Shown here: positions 3,638-10,635 of the stretch, in pieces
How positions within the stretch are numbered: position 1 is the first letter of the stretch
Layout of the letters: every line of letters begins with the position of its first letter
NCBI RefSeq assembly: GCF_045220775.1
Contig: NZ_JBGUWC010000078.1
Coordinates: 12,120-76,119 of the forward strand
DNA: 64,000 nt
Direction: 5' to 3'
Source: Methanobrevibacter sp.
GTDB lineage: Archaea; Methanobacteriota; Methanobacteria; Methanobacteriales; Methanobacteriaceae
The notes under the pieces: model-generated
Database searches by the model: none
Told to the model about the DNA's origin: nothing
Seen by the model: the letters and a program-made list of their open reading frames with translations, nothing else
Program-made: the position numbers and the translations under genes

Positions 3638-4486
3638 CTAATATTTCCCAAAATCAATGAAATCAATCGGATGATTATACCTTTTTTCTTCAGGAGGCAA
3701 TACCATATAATCACCGTATAATTCTGTCAATATCTTATCATAATTTTTAGGAACATTAACATATATATCTTCAAATTGTACCTTTTCAACTTCTTTAAAA
3801 TCACTTTTATCATATATTAAAGGATATTCATGAGCCATTGCTGAGATATCAAATACGTTCTTAGCATTTGCATCAGAATATTTACTTAAAAAATTCAAGC
3901 ATTTTTTGTTTATTTTAGTTGGATTTAACTTTAAAATGTTTAAAATATGATATGCAGTATTTGAAATTAGTTTTGGTATAACCGGCAAATCATCTATTCT
4001 TATTTTAGACACTATTAATAATCTATTGTATAAAAATGCTTTTTTAAGTTGGTAAAAACGTTTATATTTATTGTCTGCCAAATCATCCAAAACGAAAATA
4101 TCAATATTAATGCCTATAGTAAAATCAAGTTGCAATGCCCCTTTTTCTTCAAATCTTGTATTTTTAAGATTCAATTTGGCAAATAAGTAAGGGTAATCTT
4201 CTTGTGATTCTATTGACAATAGGTCATATTTTTCATTGGAGGAAAATAACTTTTTGAATCTTTCAAATTCATTCCTCAACATGCAGACGTCTAAATCATC
4301 ATCCCATGGAATAAAACCATTATGCCTTATAGCTCCCAATAAAGAACCCGCATACATGAAATAGGTAAGACCATTTTCATCACAAAACCTGATTAGATCC
4401 TTTAAAATCATTAATTCAACATCATGAATATGTTTTAAAGTAGTGTCATCATATTTCTTTAGTTTCACATTACCACTATTATTCAA
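3638..4486 (-). CDS. LicD-family phosphotransferase
   Basis: [25 protein letters not shown] matches the LicD core (G.[14 protein letters not shown].D). 8-nt overlap with the upstream decarboxylase gene. Confidence 0.85.
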   Translation of the reverse strand: [282 protein letters not shown]

Positions 4487-5594
4487 GGAATTTCATGAAA
4501 TTTTCTTTATTTTCAATAGCTGTTGTTGTTGGTCTTCCCAAATCTTTTCTAGAACCTATTGAAGACAATATTTCAATAAATGAAAGTTCATTTCTTGATT
4601 TTGCTAATTTCAATTCATTATCCAAATCATCGAAGTTATCAACAGATGTTGCGTAAGAATAACCGCAAGATTTAGCCACATTAACCAAATCCATTGTTGA
4701 TGCAACCGTAGGCATTCCACCAACAGTCTCATGAGCTGCATTATTTATGACAATATGAACTAAATTGTCTGGATTTACATTACCTACAACCGCTAAAGAA
4801 CCCATATGCATTAATGCTGAACCATCACCATCTATACACCAAATCTTCTCATCAGGCTTATTAATGGCAACACCTAAAGCAATAGAAGAAGTGTGGCCCA
4901 TAGAACCGACAGTCAAGAAATCATACTGATGTCCTTGATTATTAGACTCCCTAATTTCGAAAAGCTCACGGCTGGCCTTGCCTGTAGTTGAAACGATTGG
5001 GTCTTCTCCTGTCACATTAACAATATGTTCAATGATTTCTTCACGAATCATATCATTATCATTTTCATAAGTTACCTTTTCATCATAAGTTAGAGCATTT
5101 TTACGAACTACAAAAGCTACGCTCTTTCCGGAATTTAAAATATCATCATACTCTCGCATTATTGATTTAAGCTCTTCTGCAGTTGTGTCTTCACCAATTA
5201 CAAAGTTTTTTATATCCATCAAATCAAGTAAATCACAAGTAATCTGTCCTTGATAGATATGCTGTGGCTCATCATGAATGCCAGGTTCACCACGCCAGCC
5301 AATTACAAAAATACAAGGAATTGCATAAACTTTATCGTTTAACAAAGAAGCAACAGGATTTATGATATTTCCCTCGCCACTATTTTGCATATATACCACT
5401 GGGACTTTTCCAGTGGCTAAATGATAACCTGCAGCCAGAGCAGTACAATTACCTTCATTAGCTGCAATCAAATGATGTTTTTCATCAATGCCATAGGTAT
5501 TGATTAAATAATTACATAATGCTTTCAGTTGTGAATCCGGAACGCCGGTGTAGAAATCACAATTTAAAATTTCAACAAAATCTTCAACCTTCAT
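4479..5594 (-). CDS. aepY: phosphonopyruvate decarboxylase
   Basis: N-terminus FYTGVPDSQLKALCNY is typical of Ppd/AepY. ThDP-binding motif GDGSALMHMG...VINN (GDG-X25-NN). 371 aa. Confidence 0.9.
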   Translation of the reverse strand: MKVEDFVEILNCDFYTGVPDSQLKALCNYLINTYGIDEKHHLIAANEGNCTALAAGYHLATGKVPVVYMQNSGEGNIINPVASLLNDKVYAIPCIFVIGWRGEPGIHDEPQHIYQGQITCDLLDLMDIKNFVIGEDTTAEELKSIMREYDDILNSGKSVAFVVRKNALTYDEKVTYENDNDMIREEIIEHIVNVTGEDPIVSTTGKASRELFEIRESNNQGHQYDFLTVGSMGHTSSIALGVAINKPDEKIWCIDGDGSALMHMGSLAVVGNVNPDNLVHIVINNAAHETVGGMPTVASTMDLVNVAKSCGYSYATSVDNFDDLDNELKLAKSRNELSFIEILSSIGSRKDLGRPTTTAIENKENFMKFLE

Positions 5595-5603
5595 TGTACT
5601 TTC

Positions 5604-8581: not shown

Positions 8582-9322
8582 TTAAATTCCATTTCTTAAT
8601 CTTTTTTGATAAAATTCATCAATTTGACCATCATATAAATCCATTGCCTTTTCAACTGGATATTTGACTGCCTTTAATTCAACTGCCATATTTTCACTAT
8701 CCAAAATGGCATATTGTGCATTCGGATTATGATTTCTAGGCTGTCCGACAGATCCAGGATTAATAAATAAAACCGCTTTTTTGTTCCTCATTTCCGGATT
8801 GTCGACCTCATAAAACTTTTGAAAACAATGAGGGTAATGAGAATGACCTGATAAAACAATATCATATCCTGAATAATCCCCATTAAGGTTATCTGGAAAA
8901 ATAGATTTCCAATAGCTATCATTTAATGAACCATGAATTGCCAATACATCTTTTCCATCCAACTTAAATTTATACTTGCCATCATGAATTAATTCATTGT
9001 TCAAATAAGATTCAGCATCCTCATTTAACTGCGAAGCAGTAAATTTTGCAGATTCAACACCGCGCTTGCTTGAAAAATGATTAAAATCTTCAGTTAAAAT
9101 AGCATTTTCATGATTTCCCCATATATTGCAAATAATTTTAGAGGACAAGTTTTCTTTAATGAACGCAACAACTTCATTTGATTGCATTCCATAATCTATC
9201 AAATCACCCAATAGAATAACTGATTCAATATCACGATTGCTTAAATCGTTAATTACCTCCTTTAGGGCAAATAGATTTCCATGAATATCTGACAATATTG
9301 CATATTTCGACAATTTAATCAC
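8582..9322 (-). CDS. metallophosphoesterase (calcineurin-like, YfcE/MJ0936-like)
   Basis: Ordered motifs DIHGN, GDLIDYG, GNHE, GHSH. GTG start. Confidence 0.85.
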   Translation of the reverse strand: MIKLSKYAILSDIHGNLFALKEVINDLSNRDIESVILLGDLIDYGMQSNEVVAFIKENLSSKIICNIWGNHENAILTEDFNHFSSKRGVESAKFTASQLNEDAESYLNNELIHDGKYKFKLDGKDVLAIHGSLNDSYWKSIFPDNLNGDYSGYDIVLSGHSHYPHCFQKFYEVDNPEMRNKKAVLFINPGSVGQPRNHNPNAQYAILDSENMAVELKAVKYPVEKAMDLYDGQIDEFYQKRLRNGI

Positions 9323-9327
9323 GATTC

Positions 9328-10635
9328 TTATAATTCATCAATTAATGTAATTATATCTTTAATTGAAAGTAATTCTTCATCTATTTCATGCGCTCTGTGA
9401 TATTTTAAAATGCTTTTGGCAGCTTTTTGCATTGCAGGAAATGCTGCTCTTAACAATTGATTAGCATAAATTACAATATTAACACCATGTTTAACAAGCT
9501 CTTCTTCAGTAATGGTATTATAAGAAGAAGGTACAACAATGATTGGTGTTTCTTTATCTTCAGCTCTGAATTTATCGCAGAATTCCAATATTTCATCTGG
9601 CTCTTTTTTCCTGCTGTGTATCATTATTCCATCAGCGCCAGCATCACGGAATGCAAATGCCCTTTTAAGTGCATCTTCCATACCCTGTTCAAGAATCAAA
9701 CTTTCAATTCTGGCAATAATCATGAAATCATCAGACAATTGGGCATTTTTACCAGCAGCTATCTTTTCACAAAAGTGTTCAATATCATCCTGTGTCTGCT
9801 CGACTTCCGTTCCGAATAACGAATTTTTCTTTAAGCCTATCTTATCTTCAATAATGACCGCTGACACTCCCAATCTTTCAAGAGACCTTACTGTGTAAAC
9901 AAAATGCTCGGCAATTCCTCCAGTATCCCCATCAAAAATAATCGGTTTGGTGGTAACTTCCATAATATCATTAATAGTTCTGAATCTTGAAGTCATGTCC
10001 ACCAATTCAATATCCGGCTTTCCTTTTTCGGTACTGTCACATAAACTTGAAATCCACATCGCATCAAACTGATCTATATGCTCATCATCAGCAATGACAG
10101 TTTTTTCAGCAATCAAACCAGTCAAACCACTATGGACTTCAATTGTCTTGACAATCGGGACCATTTTCAATAACTTTTTAAGCCTAGATCTTCTAAGCTC
10201 GGGCATGGCAAGCTGTTCTTTCATTTGTTTATCAATTTTTTGGATTTTCTCATTAAAAGTGTATGGAACTTCAATTAGTTCTCCACCATATTTATCCAAA
10301 ACATTAACGATATTCTGCCTTATAATCTTCATTGAATCTTCTGACCAGTTATCTCCATGGATAATGTAATCTGGACGAAGCTGGCGAACCACATCATCAT
10401 ACATTATTTTATTTTGAATAATTACCTTATCAACATCAGGAATCTCTTCAACTAATTTAACACGTTCGGAAGTGGTTTTTAATGGAAATCTGTTATATTT
10501 AACCATTTCAGAATCGCAAAGAACGCCTATTACAACATTTCCATATTTTTTAGCTTCATTAATTAAATTTAAGTGTCCCTCATGGATGATATCTGTACAA
10601 AAACAAGTATAAACAATCGGTTTATCGGATTTCAT
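9328..10635 (-). CDS. aepX: bifunctional cytidylyltransferase-domain / phosphoenolpyruvate phosphomutase
   Basis: The N-terminal ~130 aa carry the H.GH cytidylyltransferase motif (CTDIIHEGHLNLI). The C-terminal ~300 aa carry PEP-mutase motifs (DGDTGG, IIEDKIGLKKNSL). Confidence 0.85.
   Translation of the reverse strand: MKSDKPIVYTCFCTDIIHEGHLNLINEAKKYGNVVIGVLCDSEMVKYNRFPLKTTSERVKLVEEIPDVDKVIIQNKIMYDDVVRQLRPDYIIHGDNWSEDSMKIIRQNIVNVLDKYGGELIEVPYTFNEKIQKIDKQMKEQLAMPELRRSRLKKLLKMVPIVKTIEVHSGLTGLIAEKTVIADDEHIDQFDAMWISSLCDSTEKGKPDIELVDMTSRFRTINDIMEVTTKPIIFDGDTGGIAEHFVYTVRSLERLGVSAVIIEDKIGLKKNSLFGTEVEQTQDDIEHFCEKIAAGKNAQLSDDFMIIARIESLILEQGMEDALKRAFAFRDAGADGIMIHSRKKEPDEILEFCDKFRAEDKETPIIVVPSSYNTITEEELVKHGVNIVIYANQLLRAAFPAMQKAAKSILKYHRAHEIDEELLSIKDIITLIDEL

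Follow-up and report, generated by a model that had tools for sequence, protein, structure and literature searches.

The window, meaning the whole 64-kb stretch of DNA analysed here, derives from a rumen Methanobrevibacter and carries seven tightly packed genes on the minus strand (3638-10635 in the ORF listing). The spacings between them, from gene 1 to gene 7, are 5, 11, 2, 1, 9 and -8 nt, in exact agreement with the first-pass annotation, which described seven co-directional minus-strand genes that at most overlap by 8 nt and are at most 11 nt apart. The operon, its flanking gene and a divergently oriented arm comprise the following features:

2106..3593, minus strand: SNF-family Na+ symporter (PF00209, E 1.7e-77)
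3638..4486, minus strand: gene 7, the last of the operon, LicD-family phosphotransferase LicD_A (PF04991, E 2.9e-46)
4479..5594, minus strand: gene 6, ThDP-dependent phosphonopyruvate decarboxylase, Ppd (TIGR03297)
5604..6785, minus strand: gene 5 (cassette gene 4), NADP(H)-type oxidoreductase (PF03435, N-terminal domain only)
6787..7557, minus strand: gene 4 (cassette gene 3), DUF6564 protein (PF20202, 310 bits)
7560..8570, minus strand: gene 3 (cassette gene 2), extended SDR of the NAD-dependent epimerase/dehydratase family (PF01370, PF16363)
8582..9322, minus strand: gene 2 (cassette gene 1), metallophosphoesterase (MPE) of the YfcE/Metallophos_2 type (PF12850)
9328..10635, minus strand: gene 1, cytidylyltransferase-PEP mutase (PepM) fusion (TIGR02320, PF01467, motifs)
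10636..10745: divergent intergenic region, 110 bp, very AT-rich, with several TATA-like boxes
10746..11591, plus strand: second LicD paralogue, LicD_B, first of the divergent arm (PF04991, E 3e-41)
11609..12577, plus strand: GpsA, bacterial-type NAD(P)H-dependent sn-glycerol-3-phosphate dehydrogenase (NF000942, PF01210, PF07479)
12578..13276, plus strand: TarI/IspD-type polyol-phosphate cytidylyltransferase, CDP-polyol (NF001183)
13294..14316, plus strand: third LicD paralogue, LicD_C, at the island end (PF04991, E 1.2e-30)

The region at 10636..10745 presumably holds the putative promoters of both divergent operons. The symporter gene begins 44 nt from the 3′ end of LicD_A and lies immediately downstream, as first annotated, but it is not a member of the system. 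Its GC content (39%) resembles that of the rest of the window. Copies with 82-87% identity adjoin the island in eight loci of the genus Methanobacter (Methanobrevibacter), whereas none of the bacterial loci has the gene; it is a native archaeal flank that marks the island boundary, outside the transferred system. RecJ_Meth, an archaeal PheS and GltX lie on the same contig within the window, and these archaeal flanks confirm the earlier assignment of the operon to a methanogen.

Profile HMM searches return matches far beyond chance for PEP mutase, Ppd, LicD, CTP_transf_like, metallophosphoesterase, SDR and SNF, and every motif that the first-pass annotation quoted is present. Gene 1 encodes a Fom1-type cytidylyltransferase domain (residues ~4-139) with HEGH at residue 18, matching CTP_transf_like PF01467 (E 3e-13) and the Fom1 cytidylyltransferase structure PDB 5x3d (E 1.7e-28), fused to a PEP mutase domain (residues ~150-433) with EDKIGLKKNS at residue 263 and matches to the PEP mutase structures 5unc and 1m1b (E ~1e-40). 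The protein scores 414 bits against the NCBIfam equivalog PEP_mutase TIGR02320 (cut-off 319.55), and Ppd, whose motifs FYTGVPDS and GDG-X25-NN start at residues 14 and 256, scores 468 bits against the equivalog TIGR03297 (cut-off 312.5), upholding both identities. The NCBIfam models for methylisocitrate lyase, carboxy-PEP mutase and phosphonopyruvate hydrolase all score far below their own cut-offs, so that the gene 1 C-terminal domain does not group by HMM score with methylisocitrate lyase or carboxy-PEP mutase, the two alternatives that the annotation had raised against itself. By strong homology, the PepM domain would form the C-P bond by converting PEP into phosphonopyruvate, and Ppd would convert this product into phosphonoacetaldehyde (PnAA). 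The Ppd step, which also releases CO2, is the thermodynamic pull for PepM.

The oxidoreductase had been called saccharopine-dehydrogenase-like, a label that holds for its N-terminal Rossmann domain, the NADP-binding region to which the PF03435 match is confined (29.9 bits, cut-off 25.1), but not for its overall predicted fold, which is nearer to LDH/MDH (AF2 model pLDDT 87; best whole-fold Foldseek matches, E ~1e-8). In the family profile, the Rossmann region matches carboxyspermidine dehydrogenase over ~90 residues only (E 4e-5). The whole-fold likeness is thus to enzymes acting between carbonyl and alcohol, and likeness to C-N-forming dehydrogenases is seen in the Rossmann part only.

This family is small, numbering only 42 representatives among 1.84e9 at E<=1e-30, and it is phosphonate-dedicated, located in PepM/Ppd neighbourhoods in all seven distant contexts examined and directly beside Ppd in four of them. 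Invariant Arg, Lys and His residues would be compatible with a small anionic substrate, and we infer that the enzyme consumes PnAA, taking, from its context, the place of a transaminase. Tentatively, it may couple PnAA to an amine by NADPH-dependent reductive amination, producing an N-alkylated 2-aminoethylphosphonate (AEP) such as N-(2-hydroxyethyl)-AEP; a close second, itself rather unlikely, is the plain reduction of PnAA to 2-hydroxyethylphosphonate (HEP).

The three remaining cassette proteins are candidates for activating and tailoring the head group. The metallophosphoesterase label of gene 2 is borne out by PF12850 (E 1.6e-21) and four intact metal-binding motifs (DIH, GDLID, GNHE and GHSH); with structural matches to PDB 3rqz (E 2e-15) and the Ap4A-hydrolase-like 3qfm (E 6e-7), and synteny with the rest of the cassette in 37 loci, it may be a phosphodiesterase or phosphatase whose substrate would be an intermediate that is phosphorylated or linked to a nucleotide. 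Gene 3 is an extended SDR as annotated (Epimerase PF01370, E 1.2e-25; PF16363, E 1.5e-23; motifs GVTGMTG, STSE and YATGK) that scores far below the cut-off of every NCBIfam equivalog, suggesting a specificity outside the known ones; it probably tailors a nucleotide-linked intermediate. For gene 4, the proposed likeness to LicC/PntC is found in the predicted fold and not in the Pfam family, which is DUF6564 rather than LicC or NTP_transf_3. Its AF2 model (pLDDT 69, pTM 0.75, residues 144-185 below 50) is best matched in Foldseek by PntC 6pd2 (E 1.4e-10, TMq 0.70), followed by IspD, LicC (1jyk) and TarI; the protein has an N-terminal VAGxSSRF loop and an invariant EGD, and its homologues give weak PF12804/PF00483 matches. 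It is therefore a predicted cytidylyltransferase of the GT-A type that may be the functional counterpart of PntC, and a CMP-phosphonate would be made by this protein and/or by the Fom1-type domain fused to PepM.

The locus was compared with 81 others, giving a set of 82 sequences of which 37 contain the MPE-SDR-DUF6564-oxidoreductase cassette. Both AEP transaminase (AEPT) and PntC are missing from 31 of these 37, and both are present in 28 of the 45 cassette-free loci, where the canonical gene order is AEPT, CT-PepM, PntC, Ppd; cassette and AEPT+PntC come close to excluding one another. The locus of Methanobrevibacter sp. RUG13115, whose PepM and Ppd are orthologous to those of the window (87% and 77%), is a natural module swap, with a PntC-AEPT fusion and a methyltransferase filling the slot of the cassette. 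Homologues of AEPT, PntC and Fe-ADH were not found within the 64-kb window. From this context, the cassette would be a mobile unit that moves as a whole and stands in for AEPT and PntC, and the presence of four uncharacterized enzymes in place of an AEP transaminase suggests that the head group is probably other than the usual AEP. It is improbable that ordinary AEP is made by an aminotransferase whose gene lies in another part of the genome while the cassette serves another purpose, such as supplying or modifying a nucleotide sugar that goes into the same glycan. AEP is the product in 56% of ppm neighbourhoods (PMC8942020), enzymes of the SDR and GT-A nucleotidyltransferase types are typical of sugar-nucleotide metabolism, and the transaminase search covered 64 kb of the genome only; however, the near-exclusive alternation, the exact coincidence of the cassette with the fusion slot of a congeneric species, and the restriction of the oxidoreductase family to PepM/Ppd surroundings, where a PnAA-consuming enzyme normally clusters with Ppd, all argue against this reading.

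Several features would connect this probable non-AEP phosphonate to the cell surface. LicD_A (GC 27%), correctly labelled at first pass, keeps the DDDxD motif, overlaps Ppd by 8 nt and is at most 37% identical to the LicDs of the bacterial loci; it would move the phosphonyl head group from a CMP conjugate to an acceptor hydroxyl. In the divergent arm, LicD_B (GC 25%) is 47% identical to LicD_A, GpsA scores 273.6 bits against NF000942 (cut-off 257), the TarI-type protein scores 279.8 bits against the D-ribitol-5-phosphate cytidylyltransferase subfamily NF001183 (cut-off 166), and LicD_C has a GC content of 25%. In Aliarcobacter butzleri, all seven genes recur together within a capsule locus that also has Capsule_synth and NeuB, in support of a role on surface glycans, and elsewhere the gene set adjoins TagF-like or polysaccharide genes.

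Fosfomycin biosynthesis runs through a CMP conjugate, which is formed by Fom1 and tailored before a hydrolase strips off the CMP. By the same logic the operon could yield a soluble, antibiotic-like or signalling phosphonate that is cytidylylated transiently, with the SDR working on the CMP-linked intermediate and MPE freeing CMP in the role of FomD; the gene 1 N-terminal domain is Fom1-like, and antibiotic production was proposed for a Methanocorpusculum cluster (PMC10035134). We consider this unlikely, as the operon ends in a LicD translationally coupled to Ppd, stands back-to-back with a LicD/GpsA/TarI/LicD wall-polymer arm, lacks radical-SAM enzyme, HppE, ATP-grasp, NRPS and exporter genes in profile searches, and has the capsule and polysaccharide parallels described above. 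Little weight is likewise given to a phosphonolipid, with the head group placed on a membrane lipid. Such lipids form an established class (PMC8942020), the last gene of one cassette locus (48% identical) is a weak CDP-OH_P_transf (CDP-alcohol phosphatidyltransferase) match, and in NCBIfam all three LicDs score highest against diacylglycerol cholinephosphotransferase (Mf1), yet at 96-107 bits, far below the cut-off of 225. LicD-family members mostly act on glycans and teichoic acids, the CDP-polyol made by the neighbouring arm is typical for wall teichoic-acid-like polymers, and the orthologous Aliarcobacter set is capsular. Archaeal ether lipids are not known to serve as LicD acceptors.

Proteins of the PepM-to-Ppd block are up to 78% identical to those of rumen Lachnospiraceae, one of which (L018) has a gene order identical to that of the window, and the archaeal clade is nested within Clostridia in the tree, indicating a single transfer of the block from rumen Clostridia. 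Of 15 Methanobrevibacter species loci, 14 have the cassette, and dN/dS values of 0.02-0.20, with dS near saturation, indicate strong purifying selection on the block. A binning or assembly artefact or a decaying relic, which the very close bacterial matches and the many MAGs among the genomes might suggest, is refuted by the recurrence of the island between the native flanks SNF and orf489 (75-87% identity) in many independent Methanobrevibacter assemblies, the archaeal housekeeping genes on the contig, this dN/dS, island ORFs that are all intact down to their catalytic motifs, and the presence of PepM and Ppd in the cultured M. millerae ZA-10 (PMC4987999).

The locus thus probably represents an acquired and actively maintained variant of the bacterial phosphonyl-tailoring (Pnt) pathway that places a CMP-activated, non-AEP phosphonate onto an envelope polymer in rumen Methanobrevibacter. 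The core of the first-pass reading, a C-P operon with a cytidylyl-activated product and LicD transfer, finds computational support in the equivalog cut-offs, the 5x3d match, the PntC-like fold and the DDDxD motif. In the proposed scheme, the cassette would replace the canonical AEP transaminase and PntC, the head group would most likely be modified or trimmed by the SDR and MPE while linked to the nucleotide, and LicD would pass the phosphonyl moiety on to an envelope-polymer hydroxyl with release of CMP. The acceptor would likely be a non-pseudomurein, teichoic-acid-like wall glycopolymer or surface glycan, which polyol phosphate from the adjacent GpsA/TarI/LicD arm would also decorate; M. 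ruminantium walls contain phosphate at teichoic-acid-like levels (PMC2812497).

The Pnt pathway of Treponema denticola, Atopobium rimae and Olsenella uli comprises Ppm-Ppd-AEPT-PntC and a LicD-like transferase, and PF01467-Ppm fusions are described in the same study (Rice et al. 2019, PMC6697681). The operon shares its PepM and Ppd core, PepM-fused nucleotidyltransferase, LicD-family transferase and the logic of bringing a CMP-activated phosphonate to the cell surface, with DUF6564 as a second GT-A-type cytidylyltransferase structurally closest to PntC, but has the cassette instead of an AEP transaminase and a PF12804 PntC, and an archaeal host. In the Lic pathway of Streptococcus pneumoniae, the cytidylyltransferase LicC and the phosphocholine transferases LicD put a small, CMP/CDP-activated head group on teichoic acids. 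The locus follows this logic of decorating wall glycopolymers and has three LicD paralogues and, in DUF6564, a LicC-like fold, but its head group would be a phosphonate made de novo rather than imported choline, and LicA kinase and LicB transporter are absent. Fom1 of Streptomyces wedmorensis has the same two-domain architecture and HxGH motif and cytidylylates a PnAA-derived phosphonate, whereas Fom3 (radical SAM), FomC (Fe-ADH), FomD and HppE are absent here, the context is that of a surface polymer rather than an antibiotic cluster, and AEP-type clusters have this fused domain too. In rumen Fibrobacter succinogenes, N-(2-hydroxyethyl)-AEP on exopolysaccharide is associated with a ppm-ppd neighbourhood (GCF 60) that lacks AEPT and two of whose gene families, PF12850 phosphoesterases and GDP-mannose-dehydratase-type SDRs, recur in archaeal ppm-ppd clusters, so that the link consists of these two Pfam families (Li & Horsman 2022, PMC8942020). 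In contrast, a Fibrobacter sp. MAG in our set (L053) is of the canonical AEPT/PntC type. We know of no characterized enzyme of the GCF 60 pathway.

The first-pass annotation knew of no characterized example in methanogens, which stands for biochemistry but not for gene presence, noted in 2016, 2022 and 2023. For PepM and Ppd of M. millerae ZA-10, probably the same island, a part in modifying wall polysaccharide was suggested (Kelly 2016, PMC4987999), a 2022 study drew attention to PF12850 and GDP-mannose-dehydratase-like genes around archaeal ppm-ppd (PMC8942020), a PPM-PPD-ADH cluster was reported in Methanocorpusculum vombati (Volmer 2023, PMC10035134), and bacterial HGT was suggested for such methanogen clusters (PMC4987999, PMC10035134). 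All share PepM and Ppd within an archaeon, as does the methylphosphonate pathway of Nitrosopumilus maritimus (cited in PMC8942020), but the Methanocorpusculum and Nitrosopumilus clusters make HEP by an alcohol dehydrogenase, followed by MPnS in Nitrosopumilus. In none of these reports are the four-gene cassette, the way it alternates with AEPT/PntC or its relatives in bacteria analysed. What is new here is the Clostridial origin, the absence of AEPT with cassette alternation, the capsule-locus parallel and the phosphonate-dedicated oxidoreductase family; if this reading is true, a methanogen makes a C-P compound and attaches it to its cell surface.

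Profile searches identified a PEP mutase, a phosphonopyruvate decarboxylase (Ppd) and a LicD transferase far beyond chance in a seven-gene operon on the minus strand, the open reading frames of which lie exactly where the first-pass annotation had put them. Their tight packing was also borne out, with intergenic distances of 5, 11, 2, 1, 9 and -8 nt, the last being an overlap of Ppd with LicD at the operon end. The features referred to below are as follows.

3638-10635, minus strand: operon of cytidylyltransferase-PEP mutase fusion (CT-PepM, gene 1), metallophosphoesterase (MPE, gene 2), extended SDR (gene 3), DUF6564 protein (gene 4), oxidoreductase (gene 5), Ppd (gene 6) and LicD (gene 7)
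3638-4486, minus strand: LicD_A, gene 7 of the operon
10746-14316, plus strand: divergent arm of LicD, GpsA, TarI-type cytidylyltransferase and LicD, GC 25-30%
10746-11591, plus strand: LicD_B, first gene of the divergent arm
13294-14316, plus strand: LicD_C, last gene of the divergent arm

Both motifs earlier read in gene 1 are present, HEGH at residue 18 and EDKIGLKKNS at residues 263-272. Its C-terminal domain scores 414.2 bits against TIGR02320 (equivalog cut-off 319.55) and is not of the methylisocitrate lyase or carboxy-PEP mutase type, sister-family models giving 41-151 bits against cut-offs of 354-420 (PPH, 151 against 374; PrpB, 94 against 354; CPEP mutase, 41 against 420). The Ppm-specific motif EDKxxxxxNS aligns with EDK..K.NS in PDB entries 5unc and 1m1b, whereas phosphonopyruvate hydrolase (2dua) has ...KDTS there. 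The N-terminal domain, with its HxGH-type motif, is a CTP_transf_like domain (PF01467; 50.5 bits, cut-off 21), and residues 4-139 match the CyTase domain of Fom1 (5x3d, E 1.7e-28). Fom1-type domains fused to Ppm are also found in clusters encoding 2-aminoethylphosphonate (AEP) transaminase (AEPT) and PntC, and PF01467-Ppm fusions account for 23.6% of Ppm enzymes (PMC6697681).

Ppd scores 468.1 bits against TIGR03297 (cut-off 312.5), carries the ThDP domains PF02776 and PF02775 in a single chain and has the expected FYTGVPDS at residue 14 and GDG-X25-NN at residue 256; sulfopyruvate decarboxylase models remained below their own cut-offs. LicD_A matches PF04991 over profile positions 1-227 of 227 (158.8 bits, cut-off 22.6), and a 20-residue segment including the acidic DDDxD motif is conserved in all three LicD paralogues. 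Gene 2 encodes a phosphoesterase of the Metallophos_2 type in which the four metal-binding motifs are all intact, and gene 3 an extended SDR with intact GxxGxxG and S...YxxxK catalytic motifs; neither reached an NCBIfam equivalog cut-off. The SNF-family transporter gene noted downstream of LicD does lie there, 44 nt away, and was rejected as an operon member on its native GC content, its absence from all bacterial loci and its flank-like conservation. An Rfam scan of the whole 64-kb window gave no family at gathering score, with no tRNA, rRNA or riboswitch match.

Genes 2 to 5 (MPE, SDR, DUF6564 and the oxidoreductase), hereafter the cassette, move between genomes as one unit. Cassette-free relatives, such as those in Ruminococcus flavefaciens (L045) and Fibrobacter sp. 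(L053), have the canonical order AEPT (Aminotran_5), CT-PepM, PntC (NTP_transf_3) and Ppd. By Pfam, Aminotran_5 is absent from the seven operon proteins, and tblastn searches of the 64-kb window with the L045 AEPT and with the PntC-AEPT fusion of Methanobrevibacter sp. RUG13115 (L011) gave no match at E<=1e-3; authentic PntC had no tblastn match in the window either. Across 82 sequences (81 compared loci and the window), the cassette is present in 37, of which 31 are without both AEPT and PntC, and 28 of the 45 cassette-free loci carry both. The few "AEPT" matches in cassette loci are either unrelated, at 23-28% identity, or belong to a second cluster of the same locus. The alternation also occurs within the genus: at 9363-15466, L011 encodes an orthologous PepM (87% identity), Ppd (77%) and a terminal LicD, with a 621-aa PntC-AEPT fusion, the architecture crystallised from Treponema denticola, and a SAM methyltransferase between PepM and Ppd. 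Where the window has the four cassette genes, this locus encodes a canonical AEP pathway, possibly of the N-methyl type, and the head group thus seems to be strain-variable within Methanobrevibacter. Because the cassette alternates with AEPT/PntC and the two modules are swapped within one genus, gene content points to the cassette filling the slot that turns phosphonoacetaldehyde (PnAA) into a head group and activates that group.

The position of the cassette varies: in Methanobrevibacter and some Clostridia it is enclosed by PepM and Ppd, other Clostridia have it upstream of the PepM-Ppd pair, and more distant genomes show different orders. All seven genes are found in Aliarcobacter butzleri (CT-PepM, Ppd, MPE, SDR, DUF6564, oxidoreductase, LicD), the only named organism among the members found by a profile search for distant members. 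Among the best 80 of the 520 bacterial or archaeal species genomes encoding a PepM relative, the only Fibrobacter MAG (L053) is of the canonical type.

Several loci depart from these arrangements. In a Lachnospiraceae MAG (L023, about 9956-16000), a CT-PepM, MPE and LicD unit is tandemly duplicated beside SDR, DUF6564 and the oxidoreductase, and Ppd was not detected in the 21-kb locus. A lineage abundant in metagenomes (L090/L091, 9001-19170; protein in 469 index blocks) encodes the oxidoreductase, Ppd, Hexapep, MPE, CT-PepM, a TagF-like glycerophosphotransferase, NTP_transferase and LicD; its retention of the oxidoreductase and MPE, with SDR and DUF6564 replaced, suggests that the cassette consists of two semi-independent sub-modules. 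Two distant PepM-Ppd-oxidoreductase clusters (L085, 1201-13996, which adds DUF6564, MPE and SDR; L086, 3404-10497) are surrounded by DUF1848, DHH-phosphoesterase-like, phage-type Dam DNA methyltransferase, helicase, radical-SAM-like, DUF4326 and transposase genes, a context that looks like a mobile element or phage, with no structural phage genes seen in it.

The gene 5 product had been described as saccharopine-dehydrogenase-like, which holds for its NADP-binding domain (PF03435, 29.9 bits against a cut-off of 25.1, residues 22-109) but not for the C-terminal catalytic domain of that family, PF16653 being unmatched. Searches of the PDB with phmmer and a shallow profile returned nothing significant, whereas a more diverse profile of the family matched carboxyspermidine dehydrogenase, saccharopine-dehydrogenase-family proteins and meso-DAP dehydrogenase (E 4e-5), all of them C-N-forming reductive aminases; these matches (8deb, 4rl6) span only the first ~90 residues, the Rossmann region. 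The AlphaFold model is good (pLDDT 87, pTM 0.89) and as a whole retrieved lactate and malate dehydrogenases with Foldseek (E ~1e-8, TMq ~0.5), with no saccharopine-dehydrogenase-family entry in the top 50. The family is small: out of 1.84 billion, 417 representatives reach E<=1e-3 and 42 reach E<=1e-30. Its invariant positions include the GxGxxG loop, an Arg after beta-2 of the kind usual in NADP(H)-binding proteins, and several Arg, Lys, His and Asn residues that would be suited to a small anionic substrate. All seven distant contexts opened (32-55% identity) proved to be PepM/Ppd neighbourhoods, and in four (L082, L085, L086/87 and L090) the oxidoreductase directly adjoins Ppd, a place normally taken by the PnAA-consuming enzyme. 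One of them, L082, is a minimal cluster of CT-PepM, Ppd and the oxidoreductase, from which the other cassette genes are absent. Genomic context thus indicates an oxidoreductase family dedicated to phosphonate pathways.

For gene 4, the earlier label of LicC/PntC-like nucleotidyltransferase is right at the level of fold, since the best PDB match of its model is PntC and the characteristic loop is conserved, but not at the level of family, where its sole Pfam match is DUF6564 (PF20202, 310 bits). It did not match PF12804 (NTP_transf_3) by sequence, its best nucleotidyltransferase-type profile match was to TIGR03310 (E 0.008, 16 bits against a cut-off of 186), and sequence and profile searches of the PDB with DUF6564 returned only noise and no solved relative; some homologues have weak matches to PF12804 or NTP_transferase (PF00483). 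The AlphaFold model is of moderate quality (pLDDT 69, pTM 0.75; residues 144-185 poorly modelled), and Foldseek placed PntC first (6pd2, E 1.4e-10, TMq 0.70), followed by IspD, inositol-1-P cytidylyltransferase, KdsB, LicC (1jyk, TMq 0.65) and TarI. In the N-terminal loop VAGxSSRF (VAGISSRF in the window), A9, G10 and R14 are invariant, as is an EGD motif. The model therefore predicts a GT-A-like nucleotidyltransferase fold with a G-x-G-(S/T)-R-type loop.

Together, the PepM and Ppd scores, the PntC-like fold and LicD support the phosphonate pathway with CMP activation and LicD-mediated surface transfer that was first proposed, amended here by the cassette. On strong homology, PepM would convert PEP to phosphonopyruvate, Ppd would convert this to PnAA, the phosphonate would be cytidylylated and LicD would transfer the head group. 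Genomic context further suggests that the oxidoreductase may consume PnAA, that DUF6564 may act as a PntC analogue making the CMP conjugate, and that SDR and MPE may modify or trim an intermediate linked to a nucleotide. It is considered likely that this Methanobrevibacter has a functional system for decorating its surface with a phosphonate. The case is evenly balanced for the fuller proposal, in which the cassette would constitute a transaminase-independent branch from PnAA, with new families of PnAA-consuming oxidoreductase and PntC-like cytidylyltransferase, and would place a non-AEP head group (e.g., N-alkyl-AEP) on the envelope of rumen Methanobrevibacter. Certainty for any specific head group is much lower than for the decoration system as a whole.

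Our tentative lean is towards reductive amination of PnAA to an N-alkyl-AEP. Fibrobacter succinogenes is reported to produce an exopolysaccharide bearing N-hydroxyethyl-AEP without AEPT, its cluster has PF12850 and GDP-mannose-dehydratase-type genes in common with archaeal clusters, and reductive amination with ethanolamine was proposed for it by Li & Horsman (PMC8942020). The lean draws on this shared gene content, on the oxidoreductase having significant sequence affinity only to enzymes that condense an aldehyde or keto acid with an amine, and on the cassette enzymes outnumbering the needs of a simple reduction; one relative also co-occurs with a PhpC-type Fe-ADH, a weak argument as that locus looks rearranged. 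A scheme that makes chemical sense but is wholly speculative would employ three of the four enzymes of the cassette: a reductive condensation of PnAA with L-serine would be followed by cytidylylation of the phosphonate, after which the extended SDR would, by UXS-like oxidation, decarboxylation and reduction, yield CMP-N-(2-hydroxyethyl)-AEP.

Simple reduction of PnAA to 2-hydroxyethylphosphonate (HEP) is a close second, held with slightly less confidence. The oxidoreductase has an LDH/MDH-like fold, HEP-bearing polysaccharides are already known, and the fused domain is of the type found in Fom1, the known substrate of which is HEP, a point that does not discriminate since AEP-type clusters fuse the same domain. 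Fe-ADH is absent from the operon (no PF00465) and from the window (tblastn with the Fe-ADH of locus L084), although gene 5, as a non-homologous reductase, could nevertheless be a source of HEP. No Pfam match to the Fom3 radical-SAM methyltransferase, FomD hydrolase or HppE epoxidase was found in the seven operon proteins or their neighbours.

The destination of the head group is suggested by the surroundings of the operon. Across a 110-bp AT-rich region, the operon stands back-to-back with the divergent arm, which encodes a bacterial-type sn-glycerol-3-phosphate dehydrogenase (GpsA; 273.6 bits, cut-off 257) and a TarI-type polyol-phosphate cytidylyltransferase (279.8 bits, cut-off 166) between its LicD genes; archaeal lipids of the host are built on sn-glycerol-1-phosphate. 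By gene content, the arm is a putative teichoic-acid-like module for CDP-polyol decoration. Its content varies among Methanobrevibacter species, with GpsA and TarI orthologues of at least 60% identity only in L002, L004, L012 and L024 of the compared loci. In Aliarcobacter butzleri, the seven genes are embedded in a capsule/glycan locus, NeuB preceding them on the upstream side and Capsule_synth and glycosyltransferase genes following downstream, and other relatives adjoin TagF-like glycerophosphotransferases and polysaccharide flippases. Walls of M. ruminantium reportedly contain phosphate at teichoic-acid-like levels and a Gal/Rha/Glc/Man polymer besides pseudomurein, and its genome contains homologues of teichoic-acid genes and many Firmicute-derived genes (PMC2812497). 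Given the LicD end of the operon, the LicD/GpsA/TarI/LicD arm, these capsule, TagF and flippase neighbourhoods and the M. ruminantium walls, the acceptor is most likely a wall-associated glycopolymer or surface glycan. A lipid acceptor is conceivable, as the best NCBIfam match of LicD, below threshold, is a lipid cholinephosphotransferase and one relative adjoins a weakly matched CDP-alcohol phosphatidyltransferase gene.

Beyond the arm, at 14444-15913 on the plus strand, a 489-aa ORF (GC 43%) without a Pfam or NCBIfam match has a hydrophobic N-terminal segment (residues 1-30) followed by Gly/Ser/Thr/Asn-rich sequence and probably encodes an adhesin-like surface protein; in L004, L010 and L024 it is likewise conserved as the native gene that borders the island.

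The PepM fusion has its closest relatives (87-91% identity) in Methanobrevibacter, where 15 genomes at species level carry them, most of these being rumen MAGs and M. millerae being among them; the next best (up to 78%) come from Lachnospiraceae of rumen and gut and from other Clostridia. In a neighbour-joining tree, all Methanobrevibacter sequences form one clade nested within the Clostridia radiation, and a goat-rumen Lachnospiraceae contig (L018) carries the six genes of the PepM-to-Ppd block in identical order at 78, 71, 78, 54, 78 and 75% identity. Many independent assemblies hold the island between the same native flanks (SNF, 82-87% identity; surface-protein gene, 75-81%). GC content is 31-35% in the PepM-to-Ppd block, 25-27% in the three LicD genes and 36.9% in the rest of the window. 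Within the genus, dN/dS of all seven genes is 0.02-0.20 compared with 0.07-0.10 for the native SNF, values that are approximate with dS of ~1-2 near saturation, and these estimates indicate strong purifying selection on the whole operon. The nested clade, shared gene order, native flanks, GC contrast and purifying selection argue that the PepM-to-Ppd block passed from bacterium to archaeon once, not very recently, and has since been inherited vertically and kept in use.

The same flanks across assemblies, the dN/dS values and archaeal genes elsewhere in the window (RecJ of methanogen type, PheS alpha and GltX of archaeal type) exclude both contamination of a MAG and a pseudogene relic; NCBI also assigns a protein identical to the DUF6564 protein to Methanobrevibacter sp. 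Elsewhere in the window, two adjacent 466-aa ORFs with TTG starts lie at 48271-51083 on the minus strand; the match of the first is to the glutamate-cysteine ligase portion of bifunctional GshA/GshB, at 404 bits slightly short of the cut-off of 425 and unexpected in a methanogen, and the second has no NCBIfam match. The pair may be another Firmicute-derived acquisition.

This is not the first sighting of phosphonate genes in a methanogen. In 2016, M. millerae ZA-10 was reported to encode PepM and Ppd that lacked matches in methanogens, and the pair was suggested to modify wall polysaccharides (PMC4987999), in 2022 archaeal ppm-ppd neighbourhoods containing PF12850 together with a GDP-mannose-dehydratase domain were placed among unclassified clusters (PMC8942020), and in 2023 a PPM/PPD/ADH cluster of bacterial origin was described in Methanocorpusculum (PMC10035134). 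The "Pnt" logic of Ppm, Ppd, AEPT, PntC and LicD is likewise published (PMC6697681). The cassette belongs to the "unclassified post-Ppd" neighbourhoods pointed out in that 2022 paper; literature searches, which also covered Campylobacterota phosphonate capsules, PnAA reductase, CMP-phosphonates and phosphonyl tailoring, found no mention of DUF6564 and no characterisation of the cassette. What this analysis adds is the cassette as a defined unit that alternates with AEPT/PntC, even inside one genus, the fold-level assignment of both unknown cassette proteins, the oxidoreductase family as phosphonate-dedicated, the orthologous set in a bacterial capsule locus, and the direction, uniqueness and selective upkeep of the transfer. 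Mutual exclusion, the module swap, the minimal PepM-Ppd-oxidoreductase cluster and the culturable Aliarcobacter set make post-Ppd chemistry without a transaminase testable.

The locus offers a clean case of a multi-gene envelope pathway passing from bacterium to archaeon and then being kept by purifying selection. AEP was first discovered in the rumen, and Methanobrevibacter is the source of most ruminant methane. If the proposed decoration is correct, it would be the first case of an archaeal cell wall decorated with a phosphonate and would give the chief producers of ruminant methane a surface epitope or antigen that resists phosphatases and varies between strains, with a bearing on anti-methanogen vaccines, recognition by phages and protozoa, and rumen phosphorus cycling; it would also extend phosphonate surface chemistry to archaeal envelopes.
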